Virus record (IMG/VR): IMGVR_UViG_3300001480_000091
Direction: 5' to 3' (one strand)
DNA length: 27,188 bases
Source: a virus
Shown: positions 1,297 through 27,188 of the stretch, piece after piece
Layout: every line of letters begins with the position of its first letter
How positions within the stretch are numbered: position 1 is the first letter of the stretch
Notes under the pieces: generated by a model
The model's database searches: none
Told to the model about the DNA's origin: nothing
Seen by the model: the letters and a program-made list of their open reading frames with translations, nothing else
Translations under genes and position numbers: made by a program

Positions 1297-1625
1297 TTTT
1301 CCTCCTTTGACATTTTTGTGTCTTATCAACCCACATAGCATAATGCCGAGAAAAAGACACCCTTTCCCATCCATATAGGCAGTCCTTCCCACTTTATGAA
1401 TACCATTAAGAATAGATAGCAAAAAAATCAATAAAAAAATAAAAGGGAAATTAATATGAAAAAATCTATCTATCCTTAATGCTACTCAAAAAGAGTAGCA
1501 ATCAAAGGCACTTCCTCAAATGATAGGATGCAGCAGGTGTCCTTTTATAGACACCACTAGGAATAGATAGAATTATTTAAATCAGATGCTAATGGTCAAA
1601 ATAATTTATCTGTTCCTAATGCTAT
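1297..1625 (-). promoter_or_regulatory. ~330-nt non-coding, structured, repeat-rich element (candidate late-operon control region or cis-acting RNA)
   Basis: This is the largest ORF-free stretch in the genome and is visibly richer in G+C. It has four TARGRAYAGATAR boxes at 1407-1419(+), 1466-1478(-), 1558-1570(+) and 1606-1618(-). Hairpins lie at 1536-1555, 1481-1499 and 1318-1360. Confidence 0.5.
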
Positions 1626-2018
1626 CTATAAACATCTTCTTTTATATTTGTATTGTATTAGAGGTTTACCTTTTGAGTTTTTATCCCATTTATGAACTTT
1701 CTCAAATTCAGTTAATAAGTATTCTATTATTTCTCTTTGTTCTCTTGTAGGTTCATATTCTTGTTGATTTACATACTTAAATATCCTATTTATAGCATTA
1801 TATGTTTCTATGTCTTTATACTCAATAAGATGTAGATATTGATGTGCTACAGGCATTAATATTGCTCCATTTGGTATTATAGGTTTTCCACCATCTTCTC
1901 TTTTTACTATGTGATGAAAAGTCAAATCTTTTCTAACAAGTCGATAGTTCATCCAATCCATATTTGATAATGGTTGATAAATTTTTAACATCTCTCTTGT
2001 TATTTGCTTCATATCCAC
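1626..2018 (-). CDS. Second HNH-family nuclease-like protein (cysteine-free type)
   Basis: 130 aa with LTFHHIVKREDGG...NGAILMPVAHQYLHLIE, a His-His...Asn...His...His pattern typical of small phage HNH proteins. Confidence 0.7.
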   Translation of the reverse strand: MDMKQITREMLKIYQPLSNMDWMNYRLVRKDLTFHHIVKREDGGKPIIPNGAILMPVAHQYLHLIEYKDIETYNAINRIFKYVNQQEYEPTREQREIIEYLLTEFEKVHKWDKNSKGKPLIQYKYKRRCL

Positions 2019-17830: not shown

Positions 17831-20014
17831 CTAAGTATAAATAGTATCAGTAACTGTCTTTACAATAAATTTTCCATACTTTTCATCATCCATAACTATA
17901 TCCATATCTTGTAATGCTTCTTTCATTGCACTTGCCATTAGTCTATAATTAGCATCATAAGATACACTTGGATTTATTGTTGGATTTACACTAGCTTCTA
18001 TTCCTGCATTTAATTGTTTCATTGCTACATCTACATCTTTTAATGCTTGTGGTATTCCTTCTTCAATACCCTCACCAATTCCAGCACTGATTTGAACTCC
18101 TATAGTATCTCTCATTAATGTTGATGGAGAATGAATACCAAATATCTTTTTGAATTTAGCAGTTATTTGTTCTTTTACTTCATTTACTTTATTATTCAAA
18201 TAACTTCCTATTCTACCAAATCCATCACATATTCCTTTGATGATATTCTTTCCTAATTCTCCCCAATTTGTATTAGCAATGCTATTTCTAAATCCTGTTA
18301 CCATTGCTCCAATTATATTAGGTATTGCAGTTAACATTTGAGGTATTGCTTCTATTAATCCTTTTCCTAATGCTAACATTAATTGTAATGCTGCTCCTAT
18401 AATTTTAACTATCATGTCAGGTCTAGTTAATGTTTCTACTAACTTTTGAATTACTTTAGGTAACATTGCTACTAATTGAGGTATTGCATCTACAATTCCT
18501 TCTATTAATGCTACTAATAAATCAATTCCTGTTTCTATTATTAATGGTAAGTTTTCTATTATTGTATTTATTATTGTTTCTATGCATTGAACTAATGTAG
18601 GTATCAATTGAGGTATAGATTGGATTATTCCTTGAACTAATGCAACTAATAATTGGATACCCATCTCAATTATTGTAGGTAAGTTTTCAGTTATAAATCC
18701 TACTATAGCATTTATGATTTGACTTATTGCATTTGATATTCCTTCCATATTAGAAGTAATCATACTCAATAATGCATTAATCATATTTGTAATTGCAGTT
18801 AATAATTGAGGTAATAAATCCAATAATAATTGTGCTATTTGTGGTATTAATGTTTGTAATAATGTTACTACCCCACTCAATATACTTGGTGCAAGTTGTA
18901 TTATTGCATTTCCTACATTATTAAAGACATTAGTTATAGTTTCTGCTAATGCTTCAGGACTACCACTACCATTTAAGAAGTTATCAAATGCTGCTTTCAT
19001 TGAGTTAACTGAACCACTTATTGTTTTTTCAGATTCTTTAGCAGTTGTTCCTGTTACTTCCATTTGTTCTTGAATTACATGGATTGCTTCATAGACATCA
19101 CTTAAATTATTAATGTCATATTTAACACCTGTTAATTTTTCAGCATCTGATAATAATCTTTCCATTTCAGTTTTAGTTCCACCATAACCTAATTTAAGAT
19201 TATCTAGCATTGTATAGTTTTGTTTAGCAAATCCTTGATATGCGTTTTGAATACTAGACATATCAGTTCCAAATTTATTTGCATTATCACTCATATCTCT
19301 AAATGCCATATCAGCTACATCTGCTGCTTTTTCAGTATCTCCACCTAGTGATTGTAATAATGATGCACTAAAACTTGTAACACCTGCCATATATTCATTT
19401 GCACTTACACCTGCAGTCTTATAGGCATTTTTTGCATTCTCTATTACTTTATCAGAACTCTCTTTAAATAATGTTTCTACACCACCTAAATTTTGTTCTA
19501 AATCAGCATAACTTTTAACACCTGCTCCTACTAATCCTGCTAATGCTCCACCTATTGCAGTTGTTACTTCCATCATTTTTTTAGCAACATCTTTAGCAAT
19601 TTCTCCTACTTTTTTAAGTCCTTCTCCTAACTTACTTAAATCAATCTTTGTTGTGCCTTTTAGTTCTTCATTCATGTTTTTTAGAGCATTTTCACTTTTA
19701 GCAATTTCTACACTTAATCCTCTATATTGTTCTTTTTGTTCTTCAGTCAAATTAGCATAATTACCCATTTGTCTTTGTGCTTCTTTTAATGTTTCTAATC
19801 TTTGTGTAGTTGCTTCAATATTCTTTTTTAATACATCTTGTTTTTGTGCTAACAATTCAGTATTCTTTGGATCTAGTTTTAATGCTTGATTTAATTGTTT
19901 TAATTCAGAATTAGTTGAATATACTACTTTATTTACATCTTTTAATGCTGATTCTAATTTTGTTGTATTTCCACCAATCTCAATAGTAATTCCCTTAATG
20001 TTCTTACTTGCCAT
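17831..20014 (-). CDS. Tape measure protein
   Basis: 727 aa with an N-terminal coiled coil, a hydrophobic repetitive core and the FGIHSPSTLMRD motif. It is the largest tail gene. Confidence 0.92.
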   Translation of the reverse strand: MASKNIKGITIEIGGNTTKLESALKDVNKVVYSTNSELKQLNQALKLDPKNTELLAQKQDVLKKNIEATTQRLETLKEAQRQMGNYANLTEEQKEQYRGLSVEIAKSENALKNMNEELKGTTKIDLSKLGEGLKKVGEIAKDVAKKMMEVTTAIGGALAGLVGAGVKSYADLEQNLGGVETLFKESSDKVIENAKNAYKTAGVSANEYMAGVTSFSASLLQSLGGDTEKAADVADMAFRDMSDNANKFGTDMSSIQNAYQGFAKQNYTMLDNLKLGYGGTKTEMERLLSDAEKLTGVKYDINNLSDVYEAIHVIQEQMEVTGTTAKESEKTISGSVNSMKAAFDNFLNGSGSPEALAETITNVFNNVGNAIIQLAPSILSGVVTLLQTLIPQIAQLLLDLLPQLLTAITNMINALLSMITSNMEGISNAISQIINAIVGFITENLPTIIEMGIQLLVALVQGIIQSIPQLIPTLVQCIETIINTIIENLPLIIETGIDLLVALIEGIVDAIPQLVAMLPKVIQKLVETLTRPDMIVKIIGAALQLMLALGKGLIEAIPQMLTAIPNIIGAMVTGFRNSIANTNWGELGKNIIKGICDGFGRIGSYLNNKVNEVKEQITAKFKKIFGIHSPSTLMRDTIGVQISAGIGEGIEEGIPQALKDVDVAMKQLNAGIEASVNPTINPSVSYDANYRLMASAMKEALQDMDIVMDDEKYGKFIVKTVTDTIYT
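18425..18695 (-). repeat. Tandem ~44-aa (132-nt) internal duplication in the tape measure (approximate bounds)
   Basis: ENLPTIIEMGIQLLVALVQGIIQSIPQL... is followed by ENLPLIIETGIDLLVALIEGIVDAIPQL... The DNA word ggtaagttttc recurs ~132 nt apart. Confidence 0.6.
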
Positions 20015-20038
20015 GATATTCTCCTTTCTTATAAATAC

Positions 20039-20064
20039 TAAAAAAACTACCCATAAAGAGTAGT
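20039..20064 (-). terminator. Weak intrinsic terminator/attenuator between the major tail and tape measure genes
   Basis: The minus strand reads ACUACUC-UUUAU-GGGUAGU (7 bp including a G-U wobble) followed by U6-7. A second perfect 7-bp hairpin lies at 20071-20088. Confidence 0.45.
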
Positions 20065-20093
20065 CTTTTTACTACTCATAAGAGTAGTAGTTA

Positions 20094-20654
20094 TTATAGA
20101 TTTGCCTCATATACTTCATCAAAGAATGCTGTATATGCAGCTGTATTTGTTCCATCTTCTTCCATTTTTACCATTACATTTTGATCTGATATTCTAGAGT
20201 TAATAGTAATGTTTAATTCATCTGTAACAGGTGTTTTAGATGTTTCTATTGTTTGAGAAGCTACTGATGGTCTAGATACTGAACATTGATAGAACCAATA
20301 TCTTGTTCCTTTTGAATCTCCTTCAAATTGGCATCCTAATGCAAAGTCTTTAAATGAATCTCCACTATTTTCAATGAATGCTCCATTTCTATCTTTTAAT
20401 TGTCCTAATATTTTTTCTCTAAAATCATTATTGATTAATGCAACTTCTAATGTTCCTGTATAACCTTGATTAGCATAATCACTAAAATATTTTGTATTAT
20501 CAGCAAAGAAATCAGCACTTTCTCCTTCAGGATCTAGTGATAGATTAACTGCTCCTGGTAATGTAAATATATCTCCATATGTTACTTGACTTCCATTATA
20601 AGTAATTGGAGCAATATGAACATTTGATAATCCAAATTTTACTTTATTTGCCAT
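20094..20654 (-). CDS. Major tail protein
   Basis: The start is taken at MANKVKFGLSNVHIAPI (ATG 20652-20654, SD AAGGAGGTAAAC). It is 186 aa and sits upstream of the tape measure. Confidence 0.85.
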   Translation of the reverse strand: MANKVKFGLSNVHIAPITYNGSQVTYGDIFTLPGAVNLSLDPEGESADFFADNTKYFSDYANQGYTGTLEVALINNDFREKILGQLKDRNGAFIENSGDSFKDFALGCQFEGDSKGTRYWFYQCSVSRPSVASQTIETSKTPVTDELNITINSRISDQNVMVKMEEDGTNTAAYTAFFDEVYEANL

Positions 20655-25115: not shown

Positions 25116-26800
25116 TATTTAACCTCCTCACTAATATAATTTAAGTATTCTTGTTGTCTATTGATATAAATGACATATGCATCCATTAAAGAGGCAGCTC
25201 CATCAATTCTTTGCCTTGCTTTTTCCTTTGATAACATAATGTTTTCATTGTCATCAACTTTAACTACAACATTTGATAGATTCCACTTTAAAATTGGATT
25301 ATTGTTATAATTTATCTTTTTATCCATTAAATCAGCTTTCATTTGTTTTAATGGTGCTGATTCAGTCTTATAACCTTGTCTTATTTCTTGCATTGTAAAC
25401 CCATATGAAGTCATTTCATCACACCAAAATTGAGCATTCCAACTATCATAACCTACCCATAATGGTCTTAAGTCATTTTCTTGAACTTGTTCCAAAAACC
25501 ATGATGTTACATCATGATAATCAATTTTGGATGTTCCTGATAATCTTAATAATCCATTTTTTAACCATTTATCATATGGGATTTTATCTTCTGTAACTTT
25601 TTTCTCTAAAAAGTTAGCTGGAATCCAATACATTTGCTTTACTCTTATTTTTCCTTTTACAACACCTAATAATGTTGCACAAGTTAAGTCTGTAGTGCTT
25701 GACAAATCACATCCACCAATGCAGTAGCAATCTTTCCAATCAGAATAGATTTCTTCATTATTCAAATCTTCAAATGTAAGCCATGCATTTATACTATTTT
25801 GTCTTACATTGAAATCTTTACATAATAAGTTGACTAACTCTATTGGATTATTTTTTGCTCTTTCTACTTTTTCTCTTAAATTCTTTATTGATTTAATTTT
25901 TCCTAATGCTGGATTAGCTTTATACCAGCATTCTTCATTTGTCCATTCTTTTTCATTGTCTAATTCATAAATAATTGGTAATAGAACATCATCTTGTATT
26001 GAACCTTCTATTACTTGTGCAGCATAGTCATATTCAATATCAAATACATTTTGTCTTACAGTTCCCATAGTAGAAGTTTCTAATAATAATGGCTGTTCTC
26101 TTGCACTCATAGAATCATACATGACATCTAATAAATTTTTATCTTTCCATGCATGGACTTCATCAGCAACTACTAAATGTGCATTTAAACCATCTAATGA
26201 ATTGCTATCAGATGCTAATGCTCTAAATGATGAATCAGTAGCATCATAATATATTCCACCTATTAGACATCTTATTCTTTTTGCTAGAGATGGACTTTTT
26301 TTTATCATTTTCTTGCTTTCTTCCCAAACAATTTTTGATTGATCTCTTTTAGTAGCAATAGAATATATTTCTGCTCCACCTTCTCCATCTTTAGTAAGCA
26401 TAAAATTAGCTATTCCAGAATCTAATACAGATTTTCCATTTTTTCTAGCAACAAATAATATTGCTTTTCTATATTGTCTAAAACCTGTATCTTTATCTAC
26501 AAATCCAAACAATGCTTGTAGAAATGCTTTTTGAAATAGTTCTAATTTAAGTGGTTTTCCATTCCATTTGCCTTTAGATTGTCTACAATATTTTTCTATA
26601 AAATGAATACATCTTAAAGATTTTTTTTCATCAAAAATATAAGTATGATTTTCATTTTCTCCTGTTACTTTATTAAAAAAAGAAACCTTTTGTGGTTTCT
26701 TCAATTTTTTTACTAAATTTTTATATACTGTCTTTACTTTTATTCCAACTTTATTTGGATTTTTTTTAATCCATTCATAGTATTCTTCAATATATGTCAT
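25115..26800 (-). CDS. terL: Terminase large subunit
   Basis: 561 aa with Walker A (VARKNGKS), Walker B-like (LVVADEVHAW) and a C-terminal nuclease region. It has an ATGA overlap with terS. Confidence 0.95.
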   Translation of the reverse strand: MTYIEEYYEWIKKNPNKVGIKVKTVYKNLVKKLKKPQKVSFFNKVTGENENHTYIFDEKKSLRCIHFIEKYCRQSKGKWNGKPLKLELFQKAFLQALFGFVDKDTGFRQYRKAILFVARKNGKSVLDSGIANFMLTKDGEGGAEIYSIATKRDQSKIVWEESKKMIKKSPSLAKRIRCLIGGIYYDATDSSFRALASDSNSLDGLNAHLVVADEVHAWKDKNLLDVMYDSMSAREQPLLLETSTMGTVRQNVFDIEYDYAAQVIEGSIQDDVLLPIIYELDNEKEWTNEECWYKANPALGKIKSIKNLREKVERAKNNPIELVNLLCKDFNVRQNSINAWLTFEDLNNEEIYSDWKDCYCIGGCDLSSTTDLTCATLLGVVKGKIRVKQMYWIPANFLEKKVTEDKIPYDKWLKNGLLRLSGTSKIDYHDVTSWFLEQVQENDLRPLWVGYDSWNAQFWCDEMTSYGFTMQEIRQGYKTESAPLKQMKADLMDKKINYNNNPILKWNLSNVVVKVDDNENIMLSKEKARQRIDGAASLMDAYVIYINRQQEYLNYISEEVK

Positions 26801-27123
26801 AGTTCATCATTATCAAAATCATCAAAATTATCAGATAATTCTTTAGGAATTAATTCATATACTTGCTTTATAGTTGAATTATAATTTTTTATCATTGCAT
26901 TGTATTGAGTAATTGCTGGATTAGCTCTATCAATAAAATATTTTCCTTGATCCATCTGTGTAACTACTCCATTTTTTGTAATTTCACTTTTTAATTTTGC
27001 CATTGTTTTTTTCATGAACTCTAATTCTTTAATTAAAGCTAATCCTAACATAGACTTATCTTCTGGCATCTCATTTAACACATTTTTAACTGCTTTAAAG
27101 TTAATTGCTTTACTTTTAGTCAT
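26797..27123 (-). CDS. terS: Terminase small subunit (P27-like)
   Basis: The start is taken at MTKSKAINFK (ATG 27121-27123, SD AGGAGCAG). The track's start at 27180 lies in the leader. It is 108 aa with ...DRANPAITQYNAMIKNY... and an acidic tail. Confidence 0.82.
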   Translation of the reverse strand: MTKSKAINFKAVKNVLNEMPEDKSMLGLALIKELEFMKKTMAKLKSEITKNGVVTQMDQGKYFIDRANPAITQYNAMIKNYNSTIKQVYELIPKELSDNFDDFDNDEL

Positions 27124-27188
27124 TTTACTGCTCCTTTCACAAATTATGGGGGTATTTGCATGAATTTGCACATTTTTCAAAGGCCCTT
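27072..27188. repeat. Right copy of the exact 117-bp direct terminal repeat
   Basis: Base-for-base identical to 1-117. Confidence 0.97.

Follow-up and report, generated by a model that had tools for sequence, protein, structure and literature searches.

The non-coding gap 1297-1625 of IMG/VR record IMGVR_UViG_3300001480_000091, a phage contig whose whole stretch of 27,188 nucleotides is referred to as the window, very probably belongs to a family of strand-specific folded repeats, designated cassettes here. The best explanation of the gap is a transcribed spacer RNA of the minus-strand operon, consisting of two partly decayed cassettes followed by a G-rich leader. Read in the sense strand, a cassette comprises a small hairpin hpR (consensus GCUAYCU-UUAU-AGGUAGC), the R box GCAUAGAGUAGAUAU, an insert, the F box AUAUCUAUUCUAUGG, and a second small hairpin, hpF (consensus GGUGYYU-AUAA-ARRCACY), in this order. 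What distinguishes the R box from the F box is a difference at two fixed positions.

Distribution of the cassette family

Close relatives of the region were found through IMG/VR contigs encoding relatives of its flanking proteins. Near-identical copies of the region are present in L001 (97% identity), L002 (94%), and L007 (78% in parts), and more distant contigs carry a cleaner form of the cassette at the equivalent place. A 20-base pattern covering the F box together with the foot of hpF, ATATCTATTCTATGGTNNNNATAA, has exact matches in 109 IMG/VR contigs and in 16 contigs of metagenome-assembled genomes (MAGs). The latter are labelled Firmicutes, Clostridia, Bacilli, 'Tenericutes', Coprobacillus, Christensenellaceae, Ruminococcaceae and, in one case, Methanobrevibacter, which we guess to be a binning error. 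The carriers, more than 100 in number, are contigs of uncultivated gut and rumen phages. From all the loci 150 distinct R-to-F pairs were gathered, with inserts of 2-152 nt, and tandem arrays of up to three cassettes are found in the relatives.

Among the cultured phages of INPHARED no match was obtained with the DNA of the region, either of the flanking proteins, or a canonical cassette, and the literature searched with the exact box sequences and keywords contained no description of the cassette. A scan of 33 canonical loci with Rfam returned no cassette family, the only matches being to tRNA and to one ROOL RNA.

A long helix in the sense strand

In 121 of the 150 cassettes R and F follow each other in the direction of the surrounding open reading frames (ORFs); the order is opposite in 3 and ambiguous in 26. 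Over box positions 2-15 the two boxes form 1920 Watson-Crick pairs and 158 G-U pairs, as against 8 A-C and 14 other combinations, with a G-U at box position 8 in 129/150 cassettes. Next to the boxes there is a conserved G x G mismatch (142/150), and beyond it lie nine further pairs, in which the loop and 3' half of hpR are joined to the loop and 5' half of hpF. All nine positions of this extension are paired in at least 92% of cassettes, with at most five A-C combinations per position, and G-U is dominant at two of them (104/149 and 82/149). True partners make 8.65 pairs in the extension compared with 8.20 for shuffled ones, a value that none of 2000 shuffles reached.

The boxes and the nine bases together give a helix of 23 pairs, which was assessed in an ungapped MAFFT alignment of 75 cassettes. 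It is 97.4% paired, with double-sided changes at 17 of the 23 pairs; the observed values were reached in none of 500 shuffles, and with the partner slid by 1-3 columns pairing was 27-54%. In energy, too, the long helix prevails: of 149 cassettes, 122 have it as their minimum-energy fold, and its average advantage is ca. 4.5 kcal/mol. It also matches the mostly regular duplex of about 20 or more pairs that is expected of an RNase III site. Where A-U and G-C pairs replace each other, the intermediates are G-U and almost never A-C. Arms rich in G-U and poor in A-C are what an RNA helix on the sense strand would predict, and not what would be predicted for a protein-binding site in double-stranded DNA. 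The strand-specific pairing, taken with the co-orientation with genes, points to the sense transcript.

A second fold: the hairpins hpR and hpF

The far strands of hpR and hpF lie outside the long helix, yet they covary with the near strands. The hpF stems average 6.26 pairs, compared with 5.42 in chimeras, and the hpR stems 6.46, compared with 5.29, none of 300 chimera sets being as high; moreover, both stems are longer in the sense than in the antisense strand (6.3 vs 4.2 and 6.5 vs 4.6 pairs, respectively). The G x G mismatch of the long helix is conserved because each of the two G residues pairs with a C in its own small hairpin. As judged from covariation, two alternative folds are conserved, the long helix on the one hand and, on the other, a form in which the outer nine bases are folded back into hpR and hpF. 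Since both folds covary, any explanation of the cassette must cover the long helix and also the pair of local hairpins competing for the outer portion of that helix.

Two further interactions were considered and rejected. The complementary loops of hpR and hpF, which might have been taken for kissing loops, are better read as the long helix continuing through the loops, and a closing stem outside hpR and hpF, as in a cloverleaf, is absent (2.92 vs 2.84 in shuffles).

The cassettes of the window

The whole window was searched, with filters off, with model R1, a covariance model of the long helix. Cassette 1 is recognised at 1538-1631 of the minus strand with 30.2 bits and E = 1.6e-5, as compared with 13.9 bits on the plus strand. 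Its long helix folds as 10 + 9 + 5 + 8 pairs, with a single C x A mismatch in the box helix and a complete extension, in which the 3' half of hpR1 (1623-1631) alternatively pairs 9/9 with the 5' half and loop of hpF1. hpR1 includes, within 1626-1635, the stop codon of the upstream HNH-like ORF, a layout found likewise in L010-L014, L033, L034, and L038. The position of insert 1 is held by another sequence in L002.

Cassette 2 is not significant with the same model (11.6 bits, E = 2.9), and what supports its probable membership of the family is the architecture, together with positional homology to L007, L002, and L001, among which its arms co-vary. It folds at -32.5 kcal/mol (z-score, z = -5.9) in the sense strand vs -20.1 in the antisense, and its extension pairs at 6/7 positions. 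Its box helix, 1404-1419/1466-1481, is made of 16 contiguous pairs with a single G-U in the minus sense, as had been noticed earlier; this G-U is replaced by A-U in L001, while in L007 a matched deletion of one base from each arm keeps the helix. A third copy, remote from the other two, is detected at 20014-20096 of the minus strand (33.9 bits, E = 1.4e-6). Its fold is strongly strand-specific (-31.4 kcal/mol, z = -6.4, in the sense strand vs -15.1 in the antisense) and its central helix is followed by seven U residues; it may double as a terminator or attenuator. In 1297-1625 the window holds two worn members of the family, not textbook ones. The features of the window are listed in Table 1.

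Table 1. Cassettes, leader, and neighbouring features in the window, with their coordinates
Feature	Position	Strand	Remarks
Cassette 1: hpR1, R1 box, 35-nt insert, F1 box, hpF1	1536..1635	-	model R1 and fold
hpR1, AUGUUUAUAGAUAGCAU	1619..1635	-	layout also in L010-L014, L033, L034, L038
R1 box, GCAUUAGGAACAGAUAA	1606..1622	-	contains 13-mer 1606-1618
Insert 1, 35 nt, A+U-rich	1571..1605	-	structure at chance level, z ~0
F1 box, CUAUCUAUUCCUAGUGG	1554..1570	-	contains 13-mer 1558-1570
hpF1, GGUGUC-UAUAAAAG-GACACC	1536..1555	-	hpF stems covary in the family (consensus in the text)
Inter-cassette spacer, UGCUGCAUCCUAUCAUUUGAGGAAGUGCCUUUGAUU	1500..1535	-	conserved in close relatives only
Cassette 2: hpR2, R2 box, 46-nt insert, F2 box, decayed hpF2	1390..1499	-	homology with L001, L002, L007
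hpR2, GCUACUC-UUUUU-GAGUAGC	1481..1499	-	L002 and L007 keep the stem and vary the loop
R2 box, GCAUUAAGGAUAGAUAG	1466..1482	-	contains 13-mer 1466-1478
Insert 2, 46 nt, U-rich	1420..1465	-	predicted unstructured
F2 box, CUAUCUAUUCUUAAUGG	1403..1419	-	contains 13-mer 1407-1419
hpF2 remnant, GGUAUUCAUAAAGUG	1390..1404	-	decayed here and in L002; L007 has the intact form GGUACUUAUAAAGGUGCU
Third cassette-like hairpin	20027..20087	-	79-nt gap between major tail and tape-measure genes
G-rich conserved leader, AAAGUGGGAAGGACUGCCUAUAUGGAUGGGAAAGGG	1360..1395	-	blocks invariant in four lineages
Leader hairpin: GUGUCUU/AAGACAC outer stem, inner hairpin, conserved loop AUGUGGGUU	1318..1360	-	compensatory changes
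Shine-Dalgarno sequence GGAGG of the phrog_709 gene	1301..1305	-	precedes the ATG at 1296-1294
DUF1492/RinA-like regulator	2475-2104	-	PHROG 36, E = 2e-16; Pfam DUF1492 sub-threshold
Terminator-like hairpin with U run	2049-2028	-	between the RinA-like gene and the HNH-like ORF
HNH-like ORF, 130 aa	2018-1626	-	HH..N..H motif; Pfam HNH sub-threshold, E = 0.032
Non-coding gap, 329 nt	1625-1297	-	between the HNH-like ORF and the PHROG 709 gene
PHROG 709 gene (phrog_709)	start 1296 (ATG 1296-1294), end 958	-	PHROG match
Clear HNH gene	504-163	-	upstream of terS
terS	26797-27123	-	ATG start, not the TTG start of the ORF list

An earlier note, made from the letters of the window, had described 1297-1625 as a structured, repeat-rich non-coding element, and most of this description holds. 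Its four 13-mers are present at 1407-1419 (+), 1466-1478 (-), 1558-1570 (+), and 1606-1618 (-), and correspond to the cores of the two R boxes and the two F boxes; the hairpins GGUGUC-N8-GACACC (1536-1555), GCUACUC-U5-GAGUAGC (1481-1499), and GUGUCUU-N29-AAGACAC (1318-1360) are located where it had placed them. The degenerate 13-mer pattern by itself is found 4 times in the whole window, against an expectation of 2.07, and as many as 4 copies arise in 16 of 100 shuffles; what makes the boxes stand out is their clustering, arrangement, and homology, not the raw count. What it took for a diverged tandem duplication is the pair of related units 1536-1635 and 1390-1499, and its view that structure resides in the minus, i.e., transcribed, sense agrees with the selection supported by covariation in the relatives. 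The region is indeed non-coding, with no credible ORF, a 157-aa ORF with a TTG start being the 112-aa ATG gene with a spurious extension, and its G+C content is raised, though modestly (0.29-0.35 vs ca. 0.22-0.31 nearby). With its 329 nt, the gap is the largest non-coding one of the genome; the statement that almost all others are shorter than 100 nt was only a rough one, six of them measuring 134-268 nt.

For 1297-1625 the fold of the minus strand has -96.8 kcal/mol and z = -4.8, and that of the plus strand z = -4.7, so that the fold energy of the whole region picks no strand; the stability of its 3' part, 1297-1400, does not exceed that of shuffles (z = -0.5). In the minimum-energy fold the spacer 1500-1535 pairs with the 3' module into a long-range rod, but its register is lost in L007 (as seen by eye) and it was dismissed as fortuitous. 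The absence of a match to a known RNA family, also suspected earlier, was borne out by a search of the window with Rfam 15, which was empty at gathering thresholds and yielded only chance-level microRNA and snoRNA matches at E up to 10. No tRNA was found in the window by ARAGORN or RF00005.

Neighbouring genes

In the 98 arrays the nearest upstream ORFs include those for RinA-like regulators (8), minor head proteins, portal proteins, Holliday-junction resolvase, nuclease, and HNH proteins, and the nearest downstream ones include those for terL, scaffold, ParB-like proteins, methyltransferase, and PHROG 709 members, with terL represented by 7-8 ORFs, counted under several overlapping PHROG families. 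Given such diverse neighbours, the cassette is not tied to one gene or module. Only a minority of cassettes have the HNH-like ORF as upstream neighbour, as read by eye from the identity list, and it was for this reason rejected as an obligate partner. L022 carries cassettes on either side of this ORF; L017 and L018 have none, and there the ORF directly adjoins terL.

The earlier note had proposed that 1297-1625 is the binding array and late promoter of the DUF1492/RinA/ArpU-type activator encoded at 2104-2475. Activators of this family act just upstream of the packaging genes, the region does lie downstream of the activator gene, and the RinA-like genes of phrog_36 are the commonest single upstream neighbour of cassettes (8/98). 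However, some 90% of cassettes have other upstream neighbours, the third copy of the window is situated in the tail module, and the arms are strand-specific and covary as base pairs, matched indels included. A consensus promoter scan of the region gave nothing beyond chance, and the candidate promoter in insert 1, TTGACC-16-AATAAT, was discarded, as it is conserved neither in L001 nor in L002. Because the HNH-like ORF directly abuts terL in L017 and L018, the late promoter would be placed, by inference, in the 85-nt gap 2019-2103 rather than in 1297-1625. A role as the activator's target is in our view very unlikely.

Position bears likewise on another suggestion of the earlier note, a put/nut-type leader mediating processive antitermination, with which polymerase would pass the terminators of the late operon. 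Selection does act on the sense RNA structure, the packaging operon begins close to the region here and cassettes stand upstream of terL in several relatives, and cassette 3 partly coincides with a hairpin of terminator type that has a U run. Yet portal and minor head genes also precede cassettes, scaffold and ParB-like genes also follow them, and tandem arrays contain as many as three; their constant part is a long perfect helix, not a defined pair of loops, and Rfam gave no match to any antiterminator family. The general notion of a cis-acting leader RNA came closest to the present findings among the three ideas put forward in the earlier note, while its put-like antiterminator version is disfavoured by the varied positions and must be considered decidedly improbable.

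Inserts and their relation to tRNA

The inserts are hypervariable, those of at least 35 nt (131) falling into 91 sequence clusters, and they fold with a mean z of -0.5, only 9% of them below -2. The constant, selected part of the cassette is the helix with its two hairpins, and the loop tolerates almost anything. Of the 33 loci examined by Rfam, about half gave matches to tRNA, some of which are the cassettes themselves, and the cassettes tend toward RNA-gene islands. In one such island (L052, 2718-3838, minus strand) a ROOL RNA (RF03087, 167.8 bits), two tRNAs, and two cassettes stand in a row.

Cassettes scored as tRNA by RF00005 are located in L034 (326-443), L055 (3970-4089), L059 (9015-9138), L070 (8938-9028), and L085 (1284-1401). 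In these the last six bases of the R box and the first six of the F box contribute to the acceptor stem, and the resulting oversized tRNA-like genes, 91-124 nt long, have a D arm, a T arm, and a greatly expanded middle. ARAGORN makes five calls, including a tRNA-Glu of ordinary length (L006), a complete tRNA-Trp enclosed in a cassette (L118), and an Arg one (L070); from the oversized set it calls L070 and, only with an intron allowed, L059, while L034, L055, and L085 are not called. In the tRNA-like members the conserved U preceding the stem corresponds to position -1, the A that follows the stem to the discriminator (73), and the fixed G-U pair to -2/74. A U at -1, a discriminator A, and a U at 74 are well matched to RNase P and to the CCA-less RNase Z pathway in Firmicutes. 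A general likeness of inserts to tRNA was rejected, a T-arm-like hairpin being present at the F box in only 14 of the 126 inserts of at least 40 nt.

The cassette might, then, be an expression scaffold for the small RNAs of its inserts (tRNAs, mimics of tRNA, or anti-defence decoys), of which the window copies would be empty or decayed shells. This would account for the real or near-real tRNAs found in or as cassettes (Trp in L118, Glu in L006, Arg in L070) and the RF00005 matches, for the T-arm-like hairpins abutting the F box in the 14 inserts just mentioned, and for the situation of cassettes within RNA-gene islands with tRNAs and, once, ROOL. It is difficult to reconcile with the tRNA-like inserts being a minority, with the number of clusters and the weak folding given above, and with inserts of 2 and 9 nt, while those of the window are unstructured and A+U-rich; we consider the scaffold unlikely. 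Similarly unlikely is a phage-borne system of swappable RNA, in which a constant, bistable leader-trailer helix would take almost any insert, host nucleases acting on tRNA or on double strands would excise it, and the helix would re-cap the flanking mRNAs, the cargo (tRNAs, tRNA mimics, and unknown small RNAs) being shuffled between phages at the boxes. If true, it would resemble an integron for small RNAs, possibly decoys against defences that target tRNA or sense RNA.

Exchange of cassettes

L003 and L004 differ by exactly one unit, bounded by two successive F-hpF junctions. Downstream of hpF1 the window matches L002, and upstream of it the two carry different cassettes. In both comparisons the break points of gain or loss lie in the F box or hpF. 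One insert family is paired with 5-6 different flanking hairpins. Comparison of the contigs indicates that the invariant boxes are short homologies, or break points, at which whole cassettes are gained, lost, and swapped.

Unit-wise gain and loss, together with the spread and the arrays, would also be explained by a folded element of single-stranded DNA, a REPIN- or attC-like doublet (REPIN from repetitive extragenic palindromic, REP, sequences) recognised on one strand by a transposase or recombinase. The architecture of two small hairpins or one long one is that of REPINs, there is a variable centre and a conserved mismatch, G-T pairs are tolerated in DNA hairpins, and with genes on one strand the orientations of transcription and replication are confounded. 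What speaks against such an element is that neither a Y1/HUH transposase nor an integron integrase is seen among the first 25 of 129 matched window gene families, that the boxes do not contain the attC core RYYYAAC/GTTRRRY, and that some cassettes are, or enclose, tRNAs with the boxes as acceptor stem, i.e., have a role at the RNA level. An insert family set between different hairpins, moreover, fits recombination in the boxes and not movement of the whole unit. A DNA element of this kind is doubtful as the explanation of the family.

Proposed function

As a whole, the package proposed here, in which the cassette is a mark for processing and stabilisation of mRNA inside the operon and its boxes serve in addition as recombination points, is put forward tentatively. 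The long helix would be the cleavage site of a host ribonuclease, RNase III being the candidate for plain helices such as those of the window, and RNase P and RNase Z for those relatives in which the last 7 pairs form the acceptor stem of a tRNA or a tRNA-like structure. After cleavage, the two halves would refold into hpR and hpF. In the window hpR would cap the 3' end of the upstream RNA, comprising the HNH-like ORF and, if the terminator is read through, the regulator gene, while hpF would cap the 5' end of the downstream RNA with the chaperone-like gene, HNH, terS, and so on. Cutting and capping would in this way set separate stabilities for the upstream and downstream parts of the RNA. 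This 'cut, then cap' scheme is favoured because it is the simplest reading that uses both folds. Precedents are known from T7 and the Bacillus phage SP82, which have intergenic RNase III sites, from the leader-trailer stalks of rRNA, and from tRNA punctuation.

Several points weigh against this proposal. For these uncultivated phages we infer both the processing and the capping step, on the grounds of sequence. A folded single-stranded DNA of the same strand would tolerate G-T pairs as well, and should replication proceed in the direction of transcription, this strand would be the lagging-strand template. We know of no consensus for RNase III sites of Firmicutes with which the helix could be compared. 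The copies of the window are degenerate, as seen from the E-value of cassette 2, the decayed hpF2, and the C x A mismatch in cassette 1, cassette 1 folds equally well on either strand, and these copies could be relics with no function. With inserts so variable and barely structured, a cargo role, too, is not general.

As a processing and capping mark, the cassette would show how small phages of the Firmicutes type partition long operon transcripts. Were the inserts cargo, they would represent a new phage route for carrying and exchanging small RNAs, beside tRNAs and ROOL RNA, which would be considerably more novel. For annotators the signature of the cassette, GCATAGAGTAGATAT ... ATATCTATTCTATGG, explains puzzling 'repeat-rich' gaps and warns against calling them operators, origins, or cos sites. 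With its 23-pair helix, second fold, and strict strand bias, the cassette is among the better-supported structured elements obtainable from sequence alone.

The G-rich leader and the genome setting

Downstream of cassette 2, the stretch 1318-1395 contains the blocks AAAGUGGG, GGnCUrCCU, UGGGAA, and AUGWGGGUU, of which the first three are invariant in four lineages. The module is known in these four lineages and lies there directly 5' of a ribosome-binding site or a tRNA; scans of viral and metagenome sequences for its homologues returned only near-identical lineages and chance matches. The outer stem of its hairpin, GUGUCUU/AAGACAC, is replaced by UGUUUAG/CUAAACA in the L034 type, and the inner stem, GGCA/UGCU in the window, by GGCU/AGCU in L097. 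RNAalifold gave -2.5 kcal/mol for the leader, in an alignment where MAFFT had misaligned the hairpin. We regard 1318-1395 as a putative separate and rarer leader element of the PHROG 709 gene. A G-quadruplex formed by four GGG tracts of the leader was considered and dropped, as one of the tracts is broken in the L097 type.

The window starts and ends with the same 117 nt (1-117 and 27072-27188), an exact overlap that shows it to be a circular phage contig with a unit of 27,071 bp. All its genes are carried by the minus strand. PHROG matches to terminase, portal, protease, major tail, tape measure, endolysin, integrase, and DnaB-like helicase describe an ordinary temperate siphovirus. A solved relative of the HNH-like ORF was looked for and none was found. 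In the sense direction the PHROG 709 gene is followed by an 81-aa ORF, and then by the clear HNH gene and terS. The +1 frame of the PHROG 709 gene runs on from 958 to 762 and encodes ca. 30 conserved residues, with no start codon of its own. This two-frame layout is kept in four relatives (L003, L006, L007, and L008, in the last from 4001) and resembles the programmed frameshift of tail-assembly chaperones; the gene lies upstream of HNH-terS, and no chaperone pair is present between the major tail and tape-measure genes.

Phages with the HNH-terS-terL layout usually have a cos site nearby, and the stretch at ca. 100-190, between the HNH gene and terS, has the maximal G+C content of the first 4 kb (0.39), with a G+C-rich hairpin of 12 pairs at 157-186. 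The third idea of the earlier note was that 1297-1625 itself is a cos/pac packaging site or a replication origin, as its repeats and bendable A+T-rich loops near the packaging genes might suggest. Three copies in the window, several per contig elsewhere, varied contexts, many of them far from terminase genes, and strand-specific, RNA-like selection leave hardly any room for this idea, and as a cos candidate the G+C-rich stretch at ca. 100-190 with its hairpin appears more plausible.

Comparison with known systems

The put sites of HK022 and the nut sites of lambda are, like the cassettes, cis-acting hairpins in the sense transcript of phage operons. The cassettes differ from them in occupying many positions, in forming arrays, and in having a constant long helix instead of specific loops. 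With the attC sites of integrons the cassette shares an imperfect inverted repeat that conserves an unpaired position, a variable centre comparable in length, strand specificity, location directly after stop codons, and exchange of whole units. However, the attC core is absent from the consensus arms GCAUAGAGUAGAUAU/AUAUCUAUUCUAUGG, no integron integrase is known here among the same first 25 of 129 families, and the tRNA-like members point to RNA.

REP sequences, the bacterial interspersed mosaic elements (BIMEs) built of them, and REPINs are also intergenic, transcribed imperfect palindromes that occur in inverted doublets, are clustered, and have two folds, and REP/BIME elements have been proposed to stabilise mRNA. 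An inverted doublet of palindromes with two alternative folds, by which REPINs are defined, is found in the cassettes as well. Unlike REPINs, the cassettes are phage-borne, have a linear box beside each palindrome and a strict orientation to transcription, and include some tRNA members, and no REP-associated tyrosine transposase (RAYT) is seen among those 25 families.

tRNA punctuation, known from mitochondria and from MALAT1/mascRNA, is approached by some relatives, in which the distal 7 pairs are the acceptor stem and U -1, A 73, and U 74 are present, and which RNase P and RNase Z could cut. In contrast to it, only a minority of cassettes are tRNA-like, neither cassette of the region among them, and the 16 additional leader-trailer pairs are unusual for a tRNA precursor.

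Finally, the leader-trailer stalks of rRNA and tRNA and the RNase III sites of T7 and SP82 have in common with the cassette a long duplex formed by the flanks of a variable RNA, which is intergenic within one transcript and conserved between sites; the 23 pairs of the cassette suffice for RNase III, and its cleavage would likewise leave hairpins at the new ends. The differences are that the sequence of the cassette is unrelated, that its arms fold back locally in a form which is also selected, that the enclosed RNA is hypervariable and sometimes almost absent, and that cleavage is a prediction. Although it is not a member of any of these classes, the cassette resembles processing stalks, REPINs, and tRNA punctuation.

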